A DNA stretch of 64,000 nucleotides from Methanomassiliicoccaceae archaeon (GCA_963728405.1 CAVSJV010000004.1:160001-224000), one strand, 5' to 3'; positions 11,057-64,000 are shown, counted from the stretch's first letter. Notes: a model not told the origin generated them from the letters alone. Translations and numbers: made by a program.

Positions 11057-11495
11057 TCACTGAGGGGCGTGGCCTTGCTCCATAGAGGCAATTATTTGCT
11101 TTAATGTCGCCACCAACCCATCGAACTCATCCATGCCGATCGGCTTGATGAGGAAGTGATCGACCGAGAGCTCCATCGCCCGGGTCCGGTCGAGGGGGTG
11201 CTGGGAACCGGCAAGGATAACGACCTTCAGGGCATCTTTCGAGCACGAGCTCCTGATGAACTTGAGGACCTCCAGGCCGTCCCGCTTGGGGAGCTTCAGG
11301 TCGAGCACCACGAGCATCGGTGTGAAGGACATGTCCTTCAGCCGGTCCTGTATGATTTCGATTGCTCTCTCGCCATCCCCAGCGACCTTAACTCGGACGT
11401 CGCATTCCAGTTTCTGCGATGATCTCCTGGGTCAGAGCGGCATCGGCCGGATTATCCTCCACCAGGATCATTTCCACGATCGGCAGATCAATCAC
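11057..11495 (-). CDS. Single-domain response regulator (Rcp1-like), one frameshift near 11400
   Basis: [10 protein letters not shown] in one frame; [17 protein letters not shown] and FLIKP in another. Confidence 0.8.
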
Positions 11496-13148
11496 TCCCC
11501 CCCTTCGGCAGAGTGAACAGGAAGTTCGCTCCCTTTCCTTCCACCGATTCGACCCAGAATCCGACCCCCCTGCTGCTCGACGATCTTCTTGCAGATGGCC
11601 AGCCCAATGCCCGTTCCGGGGAACTCGTCCACCGTATGCAGACGTTGGAACACCTCGAAGATCCTCTCGGAATACTTTGGATTTCAATCCCGATGCCGTT
11701 GTCCCGAACGCTGAAGACCCACTCCTTGCCTTCTTCCCGGACCGAGATATCAACGCGAGGCGGCTGGGACCCATGGAACTTTATGGCGTTGCCGATGAGG
11801 TTCTGCAGGAGCTGGACCATCTGGCGCCGGTCGGCCATTACTAGTGGTGAGGTACCCGAAGACGATCATCGCCTTGTTCTCGTCAATGGAAGCTTTGAGG
11901 ACTAGTTTTACTTCATTTACCAATTGGCCCATATCCAGCGGGGCGAGCCTGGTCCCTCGGCTGTTGACCCTCGAGTATTCCAGGAGACCATTGATCAACT
12001 CCCTCATCCGGTCGGAGCCTTGTATGGCGAAGCCTATGTACTCTTTGGCTTTCGGGTCGAGCTGGCCACCACACCTCTTCTCCAGTAGACCTAGGTAGGC
12101 GGAGACCATTCTCAAGGGCTCCTGCAGGTCATGCGACGCAACGTAGGCGAACTGTTGCAGCTCGGCGTTCGAACGCGTCAGCTCCTTGGCGTTCTGAACT
12201 AGTTCCTTCTCCGCCTCTTTGATGGAGGTTATGTCCTGCAGGACCATCACGCCACCGAGCACCCGCCACTGCGGGTCGATGATCGGCGCCGAAGAGACCG
12301 TAAGGGTGATGCTGACCCCTCCGGGCTGCACCAGGTCGATGATGTCTCCGATGATGGTCTTGCCCAGGGCGATGGTCCGATGAAGGGGCCAATCTTCCCT
12401 CAGTAGGGGATCCCCGGTCTGATGGTCCCACGCTGGTACTTTCTCCAGCTTCGCGGGCTGGAACAACTGTGGAGCTCTTACCCGAACAACATCAAACGGG
12501 CCATCAGATTGGTCTCGGTCACCCGCGCCTCCTGATCCGCCAGGACCACACCTACGGGCAGCGAGTCCAATATGGTCGAGAAAAGGAGATGCTCTTGGTC
12601 AGTGCTCTTCTTGACCCGAGAGAAACTGACCTCCAGGTCCCGGTTCCGTTCCCATACCGACCGATACATCATTGCCAGGGAGAGTATGCCGGCGAACCCT
12701 TCCAGGGTCCTCAGTTCATGTTCCAAAGGTTCTTCGGCCCTGGGCTTCAGCAACCCCAGGATCCCGTTCTTCTGACCTCTGCTCCGAACCTGGACCAGCA
12801 CTTACCTCAGCCCTCCGTCCCCTTCCTCCAAGTGGCCGGCATGGGAGGGTTCCTTCACAAAAAGGTGGCAGATCTCTTCGAGCCGTCGATGGCTTCCGAC
12901 ATAGCTTCCCGGAGGTATCTGACCACATATTCCCCCTCCTCGATGGGCGCGAGGAAAACGGCACTCCCAGCCAGCTCGTCGATTATGCTTTCCAGGACCG
13001 AAGAAATGACTTGTTCAGGGCCGTCGGCATTAGAGAGACCTGTGGCCATCCGTATGCAGCCCTTATGCTGATGATATCGGCCATCCCCACCGGACGGAGC
13101 GTCAGAAATTCTCAACAATCCCCCATCTTTGTCTTCCACCGGCCCCAT
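11488..13148 (-). CDS. GAF/PAS sensor histidine kinase, split by several frameshifts
   Basis: H-box [21 protein letters not shown]-box [21 protein letters not shown]-like segments; pieces at 12855-13148, 12478-12801, 11750-12466 and 11488-11838. Confidence 0.82.
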
Positions 13149-13370: not shown

Positions 13371-15072
13371 TCAGTCCATCCTTTTTGGCCGCTGAAACTC
13401 CATGACGAACGATGCGGGGTCATCGATCTCCCACATATCCACACCGGCCAGCTCGAACCGCCGTTTGTGAGCCCTCTCCCTTTCTGGCCTCAGCACCTTT
13501 CTCCCGACATCACCAGCAACGGTCAAGAACGGCCTGATGCCTCCGCGGACCGTCAACGATATTCTTCTGGTCTCCACACCGACAAACTCCTCCAGGAGGC
13601 CGCACAAGGCATCTATGAAGCGACCTTCATCGACTAGGACCAGTTCTCCTTCGTCCGTCCCTTGGACATCGAAGGTCATTTCATCATAGACGGGGAGATG
13701 GGCGATCCGCCTGGCAAGCGCGGCCAGATAGGCCTGATCATCTCCCAAGGCATCAAATATCTCATCCTCGGAAGGCGGTGCCGATGCCAGGGTCTCTATC
13801 GTCCGATCCACCAGCCCGTCGAGCCGGCTGGGCACCAACTCGATGGAGAACTCCAAGCCCTTTATAGCATTGGTAAAATCTCCAAGGAGACGGGAGGTCC
13901 GTCGGAGAATTGAGGCATCCATTAGCTCTTCGAGTTGGGTGCCGGAGAACAGACGTTCGATCGACTGGATGGTCTGGATCGCTTTGAGGACGACCTGAAT
14001 CTGGACCTTATGACCTCCCCTGAACTCCTCGACGAATCGGTGGAAGCTTGCCAGAAGTTCATCGATCCGGTCGACCTGTACACATTCCATGCACCGACGA
14101 GCCTCTTCGGACTCCTCCAGCTCTTCCAGGAAGAAGGAGAGATAGTATAGTCGGCCGGCCAGAATGGAGAACGCTTCGTTCGCCTCCAATAGGATGTCCA
14201 GAGCATAGTCTGAGGTGAAACGCACACGGTCCATGTCGTAAGTGTGTATCGAACCCAGTTCGCCAACCCTCTGCAACATGCCCTCCAGTATCGCCTGGGC
14301 CGTAGTATCTGTCGACCGGTCGACCGTGACCGGGGCAGCATATTTCGATGTCCCTGGTCCTGAGCAGCCAGAGGACGTTCTTGATCGAAGTGACGAGATG
14401 ATCGCGGTTCCAGCCCACCTGACCCGCTATCCCGGGGTCTGCAGCGAACAGCAGGTCACCAGTGAAAAGAAGGCCTCCAACTAGATAGCAGACGCTGTCC
14501 GGACTGTGACCAGGGGTGTGGAATACCTCCATCGTTCCGCCGTTCAGCGGGATCACCTGCCGTTCCACGGTCAGACCGCCCTCTGTCGCGATCACTTCCA
14601 TCTTCGTACCCAACGACACCTCCCCGGTGAGGTCGCTCTCTCCTTCGGGCAACAGAGGAGAGTAATGGACCTCCAAGAACGAAGGCGGAAAGGTCCATCC
14701 CATGATCCGGGCCTGGGTGAGGTCAGCATCGAGGCTTTTCAGTGCGTTGGCCCCCACCTGCTGGACGACGAGCCTTACCGGCCCCTGTCCGCTCTCTCGG
14801 TAGGCAGAAGCTATCTGGAAAGAATGGTCCACATGGCAATGGGTCAGGTAGAAGGTCGTTTCCAAGCCCATCGCCGACCCTTCCCGCACCAACTGAAGGA
14901 TGCGGGCCATTTGGTCAGCGTCTGCGCCTGGATCGATTATTACTTGGTCTGATCGAGTGCGGAGGACATAGGCATTGCAGGACATGATGTCCGGTTTCCT
15001 GATAAAAGGAAAGATCTCACCCGCTTCGAGACCGGTGATCGGCTGCCACTTGGCATTGTCCAGGCTTGCCAT
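13371..15072 (-). CDS. Metallo-beta-lactamase-fold hydrolase fused to a degenerate kinase/HATPase-like C-terminal region (frameshift near 14310)
   Basis: THCHVDH, HTPGHSPDS, FTGD, CPGHG; the reading frame continues into ORF 13371-14279 (helical region then VLVDEGRFIDALCGLLE). Confidence 0.75.
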
Positions 15073-15075
15073 GGA

Positions 15076-15405
15076 TCAGCCCGCCAATGCTTCCTGCTCT
15101 GTCCCGTAGATATTGAAGATGCTCGTGAAACCGGCCAGCTTGAACACCTTGAGCACGCCGGGCGAGAGGCAACAAAGCTTGAGGGACCCGCCATCCTTAC
15201 GCAGTTCCTTCAACGTGCCCAGGAAGACCCTTAACCCCCCGCTGCTGATGTAATCGGTATCCTTTAGATTGATCAGTATATTGCGGTGACCTTCGCCGAT
15301 AGCCTTCTTGAGACAGTCCTCCAGGGTCTTGGCCGAGTAGGCGTCAATCCGGCCTACGGTGTTAACTAATCTTGTCCCATTGCTCATGCTTTCATTGATA
15401 TCCAA
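15076..15405 (-). CDS. STAS-domain anti-anti-sigma factor (RsbV/SpoIIAA-like)
   Basis: GRIDAYSA, YISSGGLRVF with the phospho-acceptor Ser, VFKLAGF; TTG start behind a GAGGTGA RBS. Confidence 0.92.
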   Translation of the reverse strand: MDINESMSNGTRLVNTVGRIDAYSAKTLEDCLKKAIGEGHRNILINLKDTDYISSGGLRVFLGTLKELRKDGGSLKLCCLSPGVLKVFKLAGFTSIFNIYGTEQEALAG

Positions 15406-15406
15406 T

Positions 15407-15856
15407 TCAGTCACCTCTAATCTCTGGCTTCTCAGGGCCACCCTGGCCATGGGTGCTCATGATCAATGTGAGCACATTCTTTCCTTCCTCGCGCCGGTAG
15501 CGGACCTCATCCACTAGGTTCATCATAAGATGAACGCCCAGGCCGCCCACTTCCCGGTCCTTCGATTCAGCCTCCAGGTCCGGCGGGGGCACGCTTCGCG
15601 GGTCGAACGGCCGCCCCTCATCCACCATGGTCAAATAGATCAGGCCAGGCTCGATATTGACACTCACCCCGACCGTGCCTCTGCGCTCGTAGGCGTGCTT
15701 GAGGATATTGGTGAAGGCTTCCTCTGCCGCTACCAGGAGGTCCGTCTTCGTTTCCTCATTCATGAAGGAGCCCATGACCGAACCCTCGACAAATTCAAGG
15801 AACTCAGCGAGCCGGCTGAGGTCGGCCTCGAAGCAGTCTTGGCTAAAAGAGCTCAA
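15407..15856 (-). CDS. RsbW/SpoIIAB-like Ser/Thr kinase (HATPase_c_2)
   Basis: EEAFTNILKHAY, DEGRPFDP, GGLGVHLMMNLVDEVRY. Confidence 0.92.
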   Translation of the reverse strand: MSSFSQDCFEADLSRLAEFLEFVEGSVMGSFMNEETKTDLLVAAEEAFTNILKHAYERRGTVGVSVNIEPGLIYLTMVDEGRPFDPRSVPPPDLEAESKDREVGGLGVHLMMNLVDEVRYRREEGKNVLTLIMSTHGQGGPEKPEIRGD

Positions 15857-17223
15857 GGGCTGACCCCCACCTTGAGCGCCATGAGGGTGATGTCGTCATA
15901 TTGGGCGGCCCCTTTGGCAAAGTCGAGGACGTCCTCTTTTATTCCCTCCACGATGCCCTGGGCCGGTGAGGTCGAGAGCCTGGCCAGCGCAGCCCTGAGC
16001 CTATCCTCGCCGTACAGCTCCCCGGACGGATCGTTGGCCTCGGTGACGCCATCGGTGTAGAATAGTATGATGTCCCCGGCGCTCAGTGAGAGAGCCTTTT
16101 CTTCCGAGACAGCATCGTCCGTCGCCCCCAGGGCGATCCCTTCTCCCTCCAACTCAGTGAACGCCTCCTTCCTCAGAAGCAGAGGAGGGTTGTGTCCGGC
16201 ATTGGCATAGGTGAAGCGGCCGCTGGAGTGGTCGAGGATCGCATAGAACAGGGTAACGAACATGCCCGATTCCGAGGTCTCGGCGATAAGGCGGTTGGCA
16301 TCGGCCACCGCTCGAGCGGGACCGGAGGCCTGGGAGGAGGTCGCCCGGAGCACAGTGCGGGACAGGGCCATGTAGATCGCGCCAGGAACCCCTTTTCCTG
16401 GACGTCGGCGATGACCAGGCCAGACCGCCCGTCCCCCAGGTCTATGAAGTCATAGAAGTCCCCACCGACCTCCTTGGCCGGAACATTGAGAGCAAAGAGA
16501 TCGAACCCGTCGACGGATGGCCCCTTCTTCGGCAGGAAGCTCTGCTGGATGCCCTTAGCGATCTCCAGCTCGAACTTCTCCTTCTCCAGAGTATCGTGGA
16601 AGCGGTCACGCTCCTCCTTGGTGGAGCGCTCCATGATGAGGTTGTTGATTATGTACGCGAAGATGAGCATACCTATGGCATTGACCATGATCATGGGCGG
16701 TCCGACCCGCTCCACTACTGCCGCCGCGTATGGATAGGGACTTACGATCATCAAGGTCAGACCCATGTGGAGGGCTTCCTGCAATGTAGCAAAGGCTACG
16801 GCCACCAGGACGCCTGCGAACTTCTTACCGGCCAGGTACCAGATTAGGCTGCCGAACAGTCCAGACAGCATTGTGGCCAGGGAACAGGACACCGTGGTCT
16901 CTCCACCCACGAAGATGAGACGATGAAGGCCCCCCATCAGGCCTGCGCCGATACCGACCACAGGGCCGCCGACCAGCCCGCCGATCATCGGGCCGAGGTC
17001 CCGGACAGTTGACCTTGACCCCCAGCATGTCGATGCCTGCGTAGGTGCCGAATATCGAGAGAAGGCCGAAGGCTACCAGCAGGAACGCCTGGTTCTTCCA
17101 ATAGAGCTTACCCTCGAGAGCATCGTTGAACAACCTGGTCCGGGTTATCACATAGGCCACCACGATGACCACGCACATTATCTCGGTCAACGAGATCAGC
17201 AGATCGATAGTTATCGTGTCCAT
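15853..17223 (-). CDS. 5TM-5TMR_LYT sensor fused to a SpoIIE/RsbU PP2C phosphatase (frameshifts near 17005 and 16400)
   Basis: GLVGGPVVGIGAGLMGGLHR sensor motif; IQQSFLP, EVGGDFYD, ADV(S)GKG, NAGHNPP, YTDGVTEA, DDIT. Confidence 0.88.
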
Positions 17224-17254
17224 GTGGTCCAGCTCCAGGATGTATGGCGTAGGT

Positions 17255-17887
17255 TCAAGTGGGGAGCCCGTCGTGCTCCTTCTTGGCGGTGCGTTCCTTA
17301 CTCGATCTCTTGATGATGTATGCGAAAACGAACATGCCCACCGAGTTGAACACGATCATAGAGGGACCGACGCTCTCGACCACCGAAACAGCATAAGAGA
17401 ATGGCTGGGCGATCAGTAGGATCAGGGCCATGTGGAAAACTTCTTGCAGCGCCGCAAAGGCCACCGCCACCGGAATGCCAATGAACCTCTTCCCAGCAAG
17501 ATACCAGATGACGCCGCCGAAGAGACCGGCCAATACGGTCGCCAATGAACAGGAGACGGTCGTATCTCCACCCACGAAGAGGAGCCTGTGCAGCCCTCCT
17601 ATCAAACCCGCCCCGATGCCCGCCACCGGGCCGCCCACCAGGCCAGCGATCATCGGGCCCAGGTCGCGAAAATTGATCTTGGCGTCCATGGCATCGACGC
17701 TTGCGTAAGTGCCAAGAATCGAAACGAGGCCGAAGGTGAGGATCAGGAATGCCTGGCTTTTCCAGTTCAGCTTGCCTTCCAGGGCGTCGTTGAACAACTT
17801 GGTTCGGGTGACCAGATATGCTACCACAATAATGGCCAGGACGACTACAGTAAGCGATATCAGTAGATTGATAATATTATTGTCCAT
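17255..17887 (-). CDS. Stand-alone 5TM-5TMR_LYT (LytS/YhcK-type) membrane sensor
   Basis: NFRDLGPMIAGLVGGPVAGIGAGLIGGLHR; close paralogue of the N-terminus of the next gene. Confidence 0.85.
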   Translation of the reverse strand: MDNNIINLLISLTVVVLAIIVVAYLVTRTKLFNDALEGKLNWKSQAFLILTFGLVSILGTYASVDAMDAKINFRDLGPMIAGLVGGPVAGIGAGLIGGLHRLLFVGGDTTVSCSLATVLAGLFGGVIWYLAGKRFIGIPVAVAFAALQEVFHMALILLIAQPFSYAVSVVESVGPSMIVFNSVGMFVFAYIIKRSSKERTAKKEHDGLPT

Positions 17888-17943: not shown

Positions 17944-18804
17944 TCACCCTAGCTCCAGACTGGTTACTCCGAACACTTTATTCAAAGGTGTCGGTGGCGC
18001 TTGCTTGGTGTAGATACGGGCGGTCCGGAAGACCTCGATCATGCGTAGATCCTGTACGAGGACCATCCCCTCCGCGTTGGGCTGGGGCACGTCCAGGAAG
18101 TACGGCTCCCCAGGGACCGTTGCTATGAGGCCACGGAGCACTTTTTCAGCGGTCCGGCGGTCCTCGGCGAACAACGGGCCCACCTTATGGCCGGTCCGGC
18201 AGCGTCGTATCGTCCCATAGCCAGAGATCTCTCCATCCTTCAACACCGACAGAGAGGTCTGGTCGGGCTGGGCTAGAAAGGCCTTCAGGAAGACGTTGCG
18301 AGGGGCCCGGAAGATCGTACGGTCGTAATGGACCAGATCCTCGAACGGCAGCTCGGAAGCGCCTACGAGATCGTTAGGCGCCTCTCCCCCTCCCCAGCCC
18401 TGGAAACGATGATTCCAGTATGTGAAATGGAACCCATTCTTCTCGTACGTCGGTACCATGGCCACCACGCCGTCCGCGCCGATGTTTCGACATCGACCTT
18501 GGGAGAGCAAGTGCTCGATCATCCGTGCCCCTATACCCTGCCCCCTCAGGTCCTTGCGGACGATGAGAAGCCCGGCGAAGCTCAGATCGCCTGGATACTT
18601 TACCAGGGACGCGGATGCTACCATCTCTCCCGCGATCTCGCCGGTGAAGAAGCCGCCGGGGTCGGAAGTGAAGAAAGCTTCGGCATCATGGAGGCCAGGG
18701 TTCCATCCCTCGCGGTCGGCCCAATCCATGGTCAGGTCGACCTCTTCCCTGGTCATGTTCCTAATGGTCAACGGCGCATTGGGATGGTACATCATTTTCG
18801 ACAA
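17944..18804 (-). CDS. GNAT N-acetyltransferase (YitH-like)
   Basis: EGWNPG, LRGQGIG, KVGPLFA, VFGVTSLELG. Confidence 0.88.
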   Translation of the reverse strand: MSKMMYHPNAPLTIRNMTREEVDLTMDWADREGWNPGLHDAEAFFTSDPGGFFTGEIAGEMVASASLVKYPGDLSFAGLLIVRKDLRGQGIGARMIEHLLSQGRCRNIGADGVVAMVPTYEKNGFHFTYWNHRFQGWGGGEAPNDLVGASELPFEDLVHYDRTIFRAPRNVFLKAFLAQPDQTSLSVLKDGEISGYGTIRRCRTGHKVGPLFAEDRRTAEKVLRGLIATVPGEPYFLDVPQPNAEGMVLVQDLRMIEVFRTARIYTKQAPPTPLNKVFGVTSLELG

Positions 18805-29462: not shown

Positions 29463-30092
29463 TCAGACCCCACGCTTCTCTCCCCAGATCAACTTGTGAA
29501 GCTGGGGAAGCACCCGGACGAACATCTTGTCGTGGAGCACCCAATCTGCCAGCTCTTTGAGGTCGGCCCCCCCCACCGGGGTCATGATGATCGGCGCGTT
29601 GATCTCGTGCTCCCTCAGCATCTTGATGGCGAAGAGATAGTCCACCCGGTCAGCTATGATGAACTTCAGCTGATCACGGGGGGACAGGAACTCCAGATTG
29701 TCGTATACGATCTTATCGCTCATGCCCGAGCTGGGGCACTTGACATCCATGGAGATCAGAACATCTTCCGAATTTGGAATGCGGTCCAGGGGGATCGAGC
29801 CATTGGTCTCGATGGTGACATGGTAACTGTTGTCCAGCAGGGTCTCGATCAGCTTGTAGATGTCTGCCTGTAGCAAAGGTTCTCCGCCAGTCAGACAGAT
29901 GAAGGGCGTGTCGAAGCTCTCGACCTTGTCGAAGATCTGATCGATGGACATTTCGATCCCGCCCTCACGCGCATACTTGGTGTCGCACCACGAGCAATCG
30001 AGGTTGCAGCCCACGAAGCGGACGAAGGTGGTCGGCGTGCCCATGAGCACGCCCTCGCCCTGCAGCGAGAAGAAGATCTCCGAGACCATCAT
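29463..30092 (-). CDS. queE: 7-carboxy-7-deazaguanine synthase (radical SAM)
   Basis: EIFFSLQGEG, GCNLDCSWCDTKYA, TGGEPLLQ, PQLHK. Confidence 0.93.
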   Translation of the reverse strand: MMVSEIFFSLQGEGVLMGTPTTFVRFVGCNLDCSWCDTKYAREGGIEMSIDQIFDKVESFDTPFICLTGGEPLLQADIYKLIETLLDNSYHVTIETNGSIPLDRIPNSEDVLISMDVKCPSSGMSDKIVYDNLEFLSPRDQLKFIIADRVDYLFAIKMLREHEINAPIIMTPVGGADLKELADWVLHDKMFVRVLPQLHKLIWGEKRGV

Positions 30093-30777
30093 CGGCGACC
30101 CTCGTAGGGAACGGGGTCGGAGCATCCAGCGTCCTGGAAGCCCTTCAGGCGCAGGAGGCAAGAATCACACTGCCCACAGGCCTTATCGCCGCCGTTGTAG
30201 CAGGACCAGGTCAGGTGGAGCGGGGCATCGAGCTGCTTGCCCAGCTTGACGATCTCGGCCTTGCTCATCCTTAGGATGGGGGCCTCGACCCTGATCGGCT
30301 TTCCCTCAACTCCGGCCTTGGTCCCTACTCTCAGCACTTCTTGGAAGGCCTCGAAGAACTCCGGGCGGCAATCTGGGTATCCGGAATAATCGATGGCATT
30401 GGCACCTATGAAGATGGAATCCGCACCCTCCGTCTCTGCCAGCCCGGCCGCAAGGCTGAGCATTATGATGTTCCTCGCTGGAACATGCACGTCACCGGGA
30501 TCTTGTCGCCGATGCCTTCGACCGACGTATGCTGTGGCACTGACACGTCCCATGAGGTCAGGGCGCTCTTACGAAGGAAGCTGAGGTCCAGGTCCAAGGT
30601 GACGTGCTTCCTGAGACGGTAGTGCTCGGCCACGGCCCTGGCGGAGCGCAGCTCGCGGGAATGCCGCTGCCCGTAACCGATGGTCAGCGGTATCACCTTA
30701 TAACCCTTGGAGAGTGCGTAGGCCAAGGTGGTGGTCGAGTCCAGACCGCCCGATAATAGCACGACGGCCTTGCTCAT
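30089..30777 (-). CDS. queC: 7-cyano-7-deazaguanine synthase (2-nt insertion near 30490)
   Basis: LLSGGLDS, YGQRH..E, (TY)VPARN, DYSGYPDCRPEF, TWSCY..CGQCDSC. Confidence 0.92.
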
Positions 30778-31249
30778 ACCCCTACCTCCCGCTTGGCCCA
30801 GGCGGTCTGGCCTCTTTCCTCGTCCAGCCCGGCCTCGACGATGGTGACATTGGAGGAAGGTCCAGCTCTTTCAGCAGGCGCTCCAGGACAAGTTCCGCCA
30901 ACTCTTCGGCACTGGTCTGAGCGACATCGAGAATCACTACATCATCGTTCGGGAACACATACCTGTTTGCCCCGACCAGGACCTCGACCTCCCGGCCCTT
31001 CTTGATCTTGACCGTCGGCGATCTACCAGGGAGCAGCACCCGGTGGTCCAGCTCGTCGACGATCTTGCGAAGCGCCTTCTTTAAATCGACGAAGTCCATG
31101 ACCATGCCGTCGTCGGCCTTCTCGCCGTAGAGTGCCAGGTGCAGGATGTATGAATGGCCGTGCAACCGGCCGCATTTGTCATGGCCAGGTATGAAATGGG
31201 AAGCTGAAAACTTGATACCCGAGTATTCGCCGTCGATCTCGATCCTCAT
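30774..31249 (-). CDS. queD: 6-carboxy-5,6,7,8-tetrahydropterin synthase (frameshift near 30853)
   Basis: FSASHF..H.KC.RLHGH, MVMDF, LDH, TSAEE; the corrected C-terminus VEAGLDEERGQTA ends overlapping the queC ATG. Confidence 0.9.
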
Positions 31250-62707: not shown

Positions 62708-63667
62708 TCATGGTAGTATGAGAGAGCCGGCCACCCGTAGCTTCCCACCTTCCAGGTACATCAGCACCGCCCTAGATCCGGGGGGATGGACCACCGGTTT
62801 GTCCAGGGACAGAGTGATGGTCGGCTTCCTGAAGTCGCCAGAGTCATTCACGGATTCCACCCGTGCCCCCAGGAACTGCATCCAGTGGCCCAGATGGAGG
62901 ACCATGCCCACCTTCAGTGGCAGCTTCCAGAAGTTGACCAGCTCGGCCTGGGCGGTGACGGTGGTCTCGCTCTTGACTCTGGGGTCCTTGGTCAACACAT
63001 ACCCGCGGTCTAGCTGCTCGACGTCGATGTTCTTCAGCGCCAGCCCCACGCGATCCCCCATACTGGCGTCATTGAAGTCATCGTCGTGCTTCTGGATCGA
63101 CCGGACCAACGCGCTCTTGTTGGTGGGCAGGACCTTGAGGTCATCGTGGCGGTGGATCCTGCCATAGGCCACGTAACCTAGGATCACCACGCCCACACCC
63201 TTGACGTTGAAGAAGTGATCGATCGGTACCGCTCCGACGCTCTCGTCCTCCGCGACTGGAATGTTGCGGGCTTCGTCCAGCAGCATCTCCCTCAGGGCGA
63301 CCGGGTCTTCACCGATGTATTTGTAGGACTCCAGCACCGTCCCCTTGGTCAGAGGGGCAAGCTGCTCGGGCGTCAAGTAGTTGCGCAGCACGATGTATCC
63401 CTGCTTGATGTTGGCACACTGCAGCATGACCATGCTCTCCCCCAGCTGGGCGTTGATAGCATCGACAATGATCAACGCACGGTCGGCCATGGAGACGGCA
63501 TAGAAGAGGGGGGCCACGCGGTCGGGGTACTTGGTCGGCTCAATGAAGGTGACGGTGTCCGTGCCCAGTTTTAGATCGTACAGGGTGATGTCCGAGACGG
63601 TGCCCTTCTTACCCAGGTCCTTGGCGTAATCGTTCGGGCCGATGACCGCGACGTTAAGGTTGGCCAT
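62708..63667 (-). CDS. Archaeal SelB-like / EF-Tu domain II protein (aSelBL)
   Basis: LGKKGTVSDITLY, IDHFFNVKGVGVVILG, SIQKHD, GDRVGLALK; degenerate P-loop. Confidence 0.85.
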   Translation of the reverse strand: MANLNVAVIGPNDYAKDLGKKGTVSDITLYDLKLGTDTVTFIEPTKYPDRVAPLFYAVSMADRALIIVDAINAQLGESMVMLQCANIKQGYIVLRNYLTPEQLAPLTKGTVLESYKYIGEDPVALREMLLDEARNIPVAEDESVGAVPIDHFFNVKGVGVVILGYVAYGRIHRHDDLKVLPTNKSALVRSIQKHDDDFNDASMGDRVGLALKNIDVEQLDRGYVLTKDPRVKSETTVTAQAELVNFWKLPLKVGMVLHLGHWMQFLGARVESVNDSGDFRKPTITLSLDKPVVHPPGSRAVLMYLEGGKLRVAGSLILP

Positions 63668-63740
63668 GAGCTAAGGTAAAAAAGGCGGGGATAATAGGTT
63701 TGTGGTCGGAAAAGAAAAAGGGCAAGACCTGCCCGGCCCA

Positions 63741-64000
63741 TCATGTCCCGGTAGCCAGGGTCCCGCCGAACACCAGCCAGGCCAGCGCGGTCTTCGCAAA
63801 CAGGCTGAGCAGGATGTAGACGTACTCGCCGAACAGGTAGTCCTTCCACCGCCCCACCTTCCTGTACTGCAATATCATATTGAAGGCGAAGCTGAAGAAG
63901 AATATCGCGATGATCACGTATATCCAGTAGACAAAGTCGGGGACCCTGCCGCCCTGCCCGGAACCCCACAGGTAGATCGAGATGACCAGCCAGGGGATCA
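63741..64000 (-). CDS. heR: Heliorhodopsin, C-terminal part (5' end outside window; not in the ORF track)
   Basis: Hand translation IPW...VPDFVYWIY..FFFSFAFNMILQYRKVGRWKDYLFGEYVYILLSLFAKTALAWLVFGGTL with the SLxAK retinal-binding Lys. Confidence 0.9.
   Translation of the reverse strand, partial: IPWLVISIYLWGSGQGGRVPDFVYWIYVIIAIFFFSFAFNMILQYRKVGRWKDYLFGEYVYILLSLFAKTALAWLVFGGTLATGT

Follow-up and report, generated by a model that had tools for sequence, protein, structure and literature searches.

What does a partner-switching module act on in an archaeon? Many methanogens keep complete sets of anti-sigma, anti-anti-sigma and phosphatase genes although archaea, to our knowledge, have no sigma factors. 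One such set lies in the 64,000-nucleotide (nt) stretch of a Methanomassiliicoccaceae archaeon genome analyzed here (GCA_963728405.1 CAVSJV010000004.1:160001-224000; called the window below, with positions numbered along the whole stretch). At 13371-17887, on the minus strand like all genes of the system, the genes for two 5TM-LYT membrane proteins, one of them joined to a PP2C-type serine phosphatase, for an RsbW-type serine kinase and for a STAS protein run into a gene whose product combines a metallo-beta-lactamase (MBL)-fold hydrolase domain with a tail that folds, according to structure prediction, like a histidine kinase (MBL-pseudokinase). The reading that we prefer, to which we give a probability of roughly 0.55, is that this is a sigma-less partner-switching module whose free STAS protein docks on the pseudokinase tail and alters the activity of the fused hydrolase. 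What appears to be new here is a candidate target for the sigma-less modules, for which a concrete protein family and interface can now be named. If the reading holds, partner switching extends to enzyme control in archaea, and it offers a handle on methanogen signal transduction and on an uncharacterized MBL family common to methanogens and syntrophic bacteria.

TBP, a ThrRS editing domain of archaeal type, diphthamide synthase and HcyBio, all encoded in the window, mark it as archaeal, and the open reading frames (ORFs) scanned with Pfam include none with a sigma-70 domain. Domain identities were computed for each gene of the run. The first (17255-17887) codes an intact stand-alone 5TM-LYT protein of 210 amino acids (aa; Pfam PF07694, E 1.5e-42). 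The next (15853-17223) codes, in three reading frames, a 5TM-LYT-PP2C (SpoIIE-type) phosphatase of ~457 aa, with LYT matches in two frames (E 1.7e-4 and 1.5e-25) and SpoIIE (PF07228, E 3.7e-42) in the third; the PP2C catalytic motifs GGDF, ADV/GKG, YTDG and DDITL are present and align with intact relatives. Against a PF07694 gathering cut-off of 24.6 bits, the stand-alone protein scores 145.5 and the segment 16173-16988 of the phosphatase gene 90.2. This membrane domain is the one of the LytS/BtsS sensor kinases, BtsS being known to sense pyruvate, but in the window it is joined to a PP2C phosphatase and not to a kinase. With the two LYT pieces of its neighbor (16401-17223) the stand-alone protein shares 63% and 68% identity, which makes its gene a tandem paralogue of the phosphatase gene's sensor region. 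It stops just past the membrane domain, as though a duplicate had shed its phosphatase, and has a sub-threshold NCBIfam match to ECF S-components.

The kinase gene (15407-15856, 149 aa; Pfam HATPase_c_2, PF13581, E 1.4e-24) carries EEAFTN, DEGRPF and GGLG motifs in its translation. Its product falls under the cut-offs of both the RsbW and the SpoIIAB equivalog models of NCBIfam (49.3 bits against 145 for RsbW) and is therefore a member of the RsbW family, not an orthologue. The STAS gene (15076-15450, 124 aa; PF01740, E 2.2e-21) scores 80 bits with the anti-sigma factor antagonist model TIGR00377 (cut-off 53.45). Its motif DYISSGGLRV includes S69 and S70, both invariant in 50/50 neighboring STAS proteins, and all 10 family-invariant columns are retained. 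The last gene, in its first frame an ORF at 14059-15072, codes the MBL domain (14311-15072; Lactamase_B, E 1.3e-10; motif LTHCHVDH) and continues into the tail (13371-14309, ~310 aa), which is assigned at the level of fold. The spacings are operon-like: 31 nt separate the two LYT genes, the PP2C and RsbW genes overlap by 4 nt, the RsbW and STAS genes by 44 nt, and 3 nt lie between the STAS stop (15076-15078) and the MBL start codon (15072). An earlier note on this DNA had announced a packed minus-strand run of five genes, an intact STAS phosphoserine site (YISSGG), an intact HxHxDH signature in the MBL domain and an MBL start 3 nt past the STAS stop; ORF and Pfam analysis recovered all five products at these coordinates, together with both motifs and the spacing.

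The MBL domain has what a catalytic member of the fold should have. Its metal ligands (H78, H80, D82, H83, H189, D206, H249) are invariant in 76/76 sequences, as they are in all 60 sequences of a smaller alignment, and are among 21 columns invariant across the 76. An AlphaFold2 (AF2) model of a 565-aa relative (P0001, ~70% identical to the window tail; mean confidence, pLDDT, 91.3) finds GloB (7l0b_A, E 3.7e-11, TMt 0.80) as its closest Foldseek match in the MBL domain, placing this domain, by modeled fold, nearest to the small GloB-type hydrolases. It shares the fold and the complete HxHxDH...H...D...H ligand set with GloB of S. aureus (7l0b) and with BLEG-1 (7ev5), but identity is only ~20% and, unlike those enzymes, the window protein carries the 310-aa tail. 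The NCBIfam models for GloB are not reached (TIGR03413, 32.7 bits against 200.8; PRK10241, 23.6 against 421), and no specific NCBIfam MBL model scores above its cut-off with the window domain. The suggestion in the earlier note that the enzyme might hydrolyze a second messenger or signal has no basis.

The tail is not recognizable by sequence. It has no match in Pfam (E≤1; HATPase_c and HisKA included) or NCBIfam (E≤0.01), its best hit in a phmmer search of the PDB has an E of 0.66, and hhalign against the window's own histidine kinase and RsbW gives probabilities of 0.1-0.2%. Its AF2 model, built on a 77-sequence alignment (pLDDT 91.0, predicted TM-score 0.87), consists of a helical bundle resembling the dimerization and phosphotransfer (DHp) domain of histidine kinases followed by an alpha/beta domain resembling their catalytic and ATP-binding (CA) domain. 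Foldseek returned 158 matches to it at E≤1e-3; among the matches listed nearly all are histidine kinase DHp-CA modules (5c93_B is best at E 1e-6; HK853, WalK, CpxA and the pseudokinase DivL, 4q20, also occur), at TM values of 0.27-0.53. The ESM Atlas added leads only, in the form of clusters without a name (0.93-0.94) and of one "HisKin-conflict" cluster (0.92). The hallmarks of catalysis are missing from the family. No His is conserved across the 77 tails (the best column is 42% His, and Phe in the window), no Asn is conserved in the CA-like half, the N, G1 and G2 boxes for ATP binding were not found, and the secondary structure of the model leaves only ~8 residues at the position of the ATP lid, which is no room for one. 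On its modeled fold we classify the tail as a pseudo-histidine kinase, not as a member of the histidine kinase family by sequence; the earlier description of a degenerate kinase-like tail survives in the first sense (AF2, Foldseek) and fails in the second (Pfam, NCBIfam, PDB, hhalign).

The fusion is a family and not an accident of this genome. A HMMER scan of 1.84 billion representatives retrieved 202 cluster representatives that resemble the tail with E≤1e-3, 160 of them with E≤1e-10. Since in 107 of the best 150 the length is 502-593 aa and the tail occupies roughly residues 260-560, MBL plus tail (~565 aa) is a conserved architecture. A different one is found in P0080, P0093 and P0100 (1,124-1,158 aa), in which two 5TM-LYT domains directly precede the same tail and no MBL domain is present; judged from their sequences, these proteins resemble LytS with a dead transmitter. 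On quick IQ-TREE and FastTree trees of the family the window protein belongs to a separate clade (P0151, P0153, P0154, P0001, P0158; of these, P0154 is from Methanomassiliicoccus luminyensis), and the closest named relative of its lineage is Methanomassiliicoccus luminyensis (72% identity).

Is this family linked to STAS genes elsewhere, as a target should be? Related loci were collected by scanning species-representative genomes with the motif HTPGHSPDS, which yielded 531 loci of which the best 80 were fetched; the motif came from a 22-sequence subset that shares it, and the sample is biased towards members that carry it. The hosts are Methanoregulaceae, Methanolinea, Methanothrix, Methanoculleus, Methanocalculus, other Methanomicrobiales and bacteria (13 loci, 12 of them grouped and one from an Aerophobetes; Syntrophus, Syntrophorhabdaceae, Desulfoluna and Geobacter are included). 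Neighbors were called with hidden Markov models seeded from the window proteins, those for LYT and PP2C being built on domain envelopes. All stop-to-stop ORFs were searched because greedy longest-ORF calling missed real STAS genes (46 loci vs 57), and in five sampled loci the assignments were borne out by Pfam. In 48 of the 80 loci the MBL-tail gene has a STAS gene no more than 400 nt away, which is on its strand in 44 of them and as a rule immediately upstream; if only loci flanked by at least 500 nt on each side are counted, the figure is 44/69. Of the 81 STAS domain matches in the 1,274,135 nt of the loci, 49 fall within 400 nt of the MBL-tail gene. Within 4 kb of the MBL-tail gene, RsbW is found in 43/80 loci, PP2C in 25/80 and 5TM-LYT in 22/80. 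The survey of gene neighborhoods that the earlier note had proposed has thus linked the MBL fusion to STAS and RsbW genes in other species.

The link within 400 nt is distributed unevenly among hosts. It is found in 27/28 loci of Methanoregulaceae, 10/11 of other Methanomicrobiales, 4/4 of Methanolinea (where the STAS gene is downstream), 1/1 of Methanocalculus, 3/12 of Methanothrix (6/12 within 4 kb), 1/4 of unclassified Methanobacteriota, 0/6 of Methanoculleus and 2/12 of the grouped bacteria. Two further loci, each with one flank under 500 nt, score 0/1: that of the Aerophobetes bacterium and that of an uncultured archaeon (L025), which has a STAS gene within 4 kb. The adjacency label changes at least nine times on the family tree, and the window clade, which carries the link, belongs to a half of the tree in which few other members have an adjacent STAS gene. 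The arrangement also varies: the STAS gene is directly upstream (with RsbW and LYT-PP2C divergent), downstream, divergent or fused. The fusion is a 694-aa ORF of a Methanolinea metagenome-assembled genome (L016, 6243-8327, plus strand) that joins MBL, tail and STAS in frame, the sister loci L017 and L078 having a separate downstream STAS gene; it could be genuine or could result from a stop codon lost in assembly.

Around the STAS and MBL-pseudokinase genes, which are the invariant core of the module, the remaining parts are exchanged. In a Methanothrix locus (L014, 6767-9793, minus strand), and also in L025, phosphatase and kinase are fused in a single CHASE4-HAMP-PAS-SpoIIE-HATPase_c_2 polypeptide of ~1,010 aa, beside which two STAS genes lie divergent from the MBL-tail gene. 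The Methanocalculus locus has a hybrid kinase upstream. A protein of ~440 aa with an N-terminal STAS domain and ~330 residues without a Pfam match is encoded in L026 (7776-9083, plus strand) and in ~20 other Methanoregula-type loci; its gene adjoins the divergent RsbW gene, making it a second STAS protein in the module. Transporter genes recur beside the MBL-tail gene as well: 16 loci have a same-strand ABC ATPase gene downstream of it, 10 have a DASS/Na_sulph_symp symporter upstream, and 6 have an MFS_1 transporter, which in Syntrophus-type bacteria without STAS is directly upstream (examples are L026 11565-12581, L011 8369-9874, L050 8522-9958 and L058 8378-9793). In Methanoculleus and Syntrophus-type bacteria transporters occupy the place of the STAS module. 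This adjacency is a separate clue to the function of the MBL-pseudokinase.

Contact was addressed by predicting the complex of the window MBL piece, tail and STAS protein as three chains with alignments, the STAS protein being scored as the partner. The interface score ipSAE was 0.77, 0.80 and 0.73, and each of three controls (two unrelated partners and a replaced tail) gave 0.00. The runs share at least 92% of contacts, with a partner pLDDT of at least 82. In calibration the mark used for ipSAE was reached by 116/157 solved complexes and by 2/215 mismatched pairs, counts that are rough here because own alignments and three chains were used. On the tail the interface is formed by residues 41-56 (a helix with the near-invariant F44, G49 and R50), 76-88 and 237-243 (E237), and on the STAS protein by residues 34-38, 67-71 (Y67, S69, S70) and 97-111; the MBL domain contributes none of the residues listed. 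In both partners conservation is higher within the interface than outside it (tail, 0.59 vs 0.45, permutation p ~4e-4; STAS, 0.77 vs 0.53, p ~1e-4). The model supports binding of STAS to the tail and does not prove it. The prediction of a STAS complex with the MBL tail had also been put forward in the earlier note, and it came out in favor of that idea.

Linkage, the L016 fusion and the complex prediction together make the MBL-pseudokinase the best candidate target of the sigma-less modules, and its tail, a pseudo-histidine-kinase module that has no Pfam or NCBIfam model, is probably the STAS receiver. The earlier claim that the MBL protein is the output and is contacted through its tail thereby keeps its core, on the strength of family, linkage, fusion and complex, and loses the second-messenger part. 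The switch would work as follows. The 5TM-LYT domain of the phosphatase would sense a membrane or ligand signal and set phosphatase activity, possibly aided by the stand-alone paralogue. The RsbW-type kinase would phosphorylate S69 of the STAS protein and the PP2C phosphatase would take the phosphate off. Unphosphorylated STAS would then dock through its S69 face on the tail, at the conserved "FxxxxGRL" helix and at the CA-like domain. As the predicted interface includes S69, which RsbW must reach, binding of STAS to the kinase and to the tail should exclude each other; STAS would switch between the two, and its binding would alter the activity of the attached hydrolase. Phosphorylation, the exclusivity of the two STAS partners, and the allosteric effect on the hydrolase with its direction are steps that we infer from these computed features.

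Several observations weigh against this reading. The STAS link is absent from the six Methanoculleus loci and present in 2/12 bacterial ones, a transporter gene adjoining instead, and linked loci are mostly those of Methanoregulaceae (27/28 there); as many counts come from related Methanoregula genomes they are not independent. PP2C and 5TM-LYT are linked in about a quarter of the loci, and sensors vary. The complex score measures model confidence and may echo solved complexes of STAS proteins with GHKL kinases, because the tail shares that fold. The interface helix with F44, G49 and R50 is conserved in members without a STAS link too, and so may serve another role. The 5TM-LYT-tail proteins show that a sensor domain can precede the tail, the order seen in genuine kinases. 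Finally, this copy of the system carries three frameshifts and may be either a sequencing artefact or a dying locus.

The three frameshifts, which are genuine features of the sequence as given, are single-base indels, two in the LYT-PP2C gene and one in the MBL-tail gene, and these genes show no other lesion. The LYT-PP2C pieces (17008-17223, 16401-17003 and 15856-16398, minus strand, in three reading frames) are separated by breaks at 17004-17007 (4 nt, +1 nt) and 16399-16400 (2 nt, -1 nt), where one codon is expected at each. They align end to end with the intact proteins of 466-474 aa of L012, L024 and L063, exactly one residue being lost at each break. The MBL-tail gene is broken by a 1-nt frameshift near 14310, its two pieces abutting exactly (...GHGRPVD | DTTAQAILEG...) against four intact relatives of 560-568 aa. 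The histidine kinase and response regulator genes downstream (see below) need ~5 frame changes and 1, respectively, in a three-frame reading; nowhere in the window are frameshifts more closely packed. In all, the 6.3 kb from 11.0 to 17.3 kb hold nine breaks and the other ~57 kb one, in QueC (counted among ORFs with Pfam matches), so that the breaks are not evenly spread. That the frameshifts are real and that kinase, regulator, MBL-tail and LYT-PP2C genes are decaying together in this genome, whatever the family does elsewhere, is accordingly a possibility that we take seriously without favoring it; for this copy it keeps alive the dead-locus outcome that the earlier note had set as a refutation of its own proposal. 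In its favor are the clustering in one functional block, the position of the three breaks inspected, outside long homopolymers, and the lack of an identical intact copy in the protein collection, the best being 81% identical. However, no piece contains an in-frame stop, every break is a single-base indel whose flanking pieces meet exactly when aligned with intact relatives, the two MBL-tail pieces are about equally identical to their nearest intact relative (84% and 80%), and all family-invariant residues are kept (21 MBL columns and 10 STAS columns). The housekeeping-type gene QueC is likewise split (30089-30568 and 30463-30870, minus strand, covering profile positions 84-209 and 1-93, respectively), which points to sequence errors; its neighbors are a QueE-like radical SAM gene on one side and a QueD/PTPS gene on the other, which places the frameshift in a housekeeping-type operon. 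The conclusions drawn at the level of the family do not depend on whether this copy is decayed.

At that level, the alternative that fares best is a reverse wiring, in which the MBL domain is an input sensor of metal, redox state or a metabolite, the tail is a transmitter or decoy for STAS or a competitor of RsbW, and the output lies elsewhere. The MBL domain does stand N-terminal to a DHp-CA module, where the sensor domains of histidine kinases sit, and P0080, P0093 and P0100 have 5TM-LYT sensors in that very place. A precedent is reported in DivL (PMC4211667), where a phosphoprotein partner is read by a pseudo-histidine kinase, and the MBL N-terminus has weak matches to the ODP sensor family (E 9.5e-5 to 0.06), which are however below cut-off. 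Against this wiring, all catalytic MBL ligands are invariant, as for an enzyme, the neighborhoods of the fetched loci contain no other conserved candidate output, and in Methanolinea (RsbW 0/4) and Methanocalculus STAS and MBL-tail occur without RsbW within 4 kb. We consider this wiring unlikely.

STAS and MBL-tail might also be mere neighbors, co-transcribed or co-regulated but never in contact, with STAS and RsbW acting on another archaeal target such as a transcription factor. The available excerpts of the report on SpoIIAA/AB/E-like genes in three Methanomicrobiales (PMC2686161) name no MBL neighbor, the Methanoculleus MBL-tail genes have no adjacent STAS gene, and according to the documentation of the complex prediction tool 7/44 blindly picked neighbors pass the test. 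Such an arrangement is nonetheless disfavored by a link that survives at least four gene arrangements plus an in-frame fusion, by a score of 0.77 against 0.00 for the best control that is abolished by replacing the tail, and by an interface made of the most conserved residues of both partners, and we regard it as rather improbable. MBL-fold enzymes include phosphoesterases and RsbW is linked in more loci than PP2C (43/80 and 25/80), from which one could imagine the MBL domain as the phospho-STAS phosphatase where PP2C is not linked, with the tail as docking site, but the predicted STAS interface contains no MBL residues, the window and many other loci do have PP2C, which may elsewhere be encoded at a distance, and this explanation is very improbable.

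The preferred reading, that of a STAS-controlled hydrolase, can be set beside known systems. With RsbU/RsbV/RsbW-sigmaB and SpoIIE/SpoIIAA/SpoIIAB-sigmaF of Bacillus subtilis the module shares three protein families encoded in one operon. It differs from them in having no sigma factor and, as its conserved fourth partner, a fusion of MBL hydrolase and pseudo-histidine kinase, in that STAS and not the kinase is predicted to bind this partner, and in using a 5TM-LYT sensor. In the HsbR/HsbA-HsbD and SiaABCD systems of Pseudomonas aeruginosa a switch protein controlled by PP2C and kinase is said to bind and regulate an enzyme instead of a sigma factor. That enzyme is reportedly a diguanylate cyclase contacted directly, whereas here an MBL hydrolase would be contacted through a dedicated pseudokinase module, in archaeal hosts. 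The tail finds its closest analogy in DivL of Caulobacter, for which the excerpts available (PMC4211667) describe a kinase-dead DHp-CA module as an interface that reads the phosphorylation state of a partner. Reuse of such a module as a protein-protein interface would be common to both, the interface being a predicted one here, but the partner of DivL is a response regulator, it has no fused enzyme, and no sequence relationship to the tail is detectable.

The system had been presented in the earlier note as undescribed, which appears to hold for its candidate target and not for the gene sets: in the excerpts available of their paper, Anderson et al. (2009; PMC2686161) report SpoIIAA/AB/E-like genes without a sigma factor in three Methanomicrobiales and call their targets undeterminable from the genomes. 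The sigma-less trio of anti-sigma factor, anti-anti-sigma factor and serine phosphatase is the same as here. Unlike those sets, as described in these excerpts, the trio is here linked to a specific candidate target, and the link reaches beyond the Methanomicrobiales of that paper to Methanothrix and to a lineage near Methanomassiliicoccus luminyensis. In the literature covered, to which some subscription journals do not belong, we found no MBL-fold target proposed for an archaeal partner switch, no proposal after 2009 for the targets of these sets and no STAS-MBL-fold link. More tentatively, and with the odds against us, we propose that in methanogens the sigma-less SpoIIAA/AB/E-type modules generally have the MBL-pseudokinase as their output. 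A dead histidine kinase on which STAS docks would then be a new receiver principle, coupling a 5TM-LYT (or CHASE4/PAS) signal to hydrolysis of a metabolite handled by the flanking ABC, DASS or MFS transporters.

Some features near the run, or at the edge of the window, deserve mention. About 220 nt downstream of the MBL-tail gene begins a pair of genes for a PAS-HisKA-HATPase_c histidine kinase and a response regulator (11057-13148, minus strand), whose membership in the system is uncertain. The pair is not kept beside the MBL-tail gene in the 80 fetched loci. The earlier note had read it as a GAF/PAS kinase-regulator pair; PAS, HisKA, HATPase_c and Response_reg are all matched by Pfam on the pieces of the two frameshifted genes, but no GAF domain was detected in them. 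For an EF-Tu domain-2 protein at the window edge (62708-63999, minus strand), a GTPase domain was sought in the 160 N-terminal residues and in the ORF that overlaps upstream, but none could be detected; this could reflect another frameshift or a divergent protein. On the other side of the run, a GNAT acetyltransferase gene (Acetyltransf_18/Acetyltransf_1; 17944-18804, minus strand), with relatives in only 2/80 loci, lies on the same strand; its end is 56 nt from the first LYT gene, with which it may be co-transcribed.

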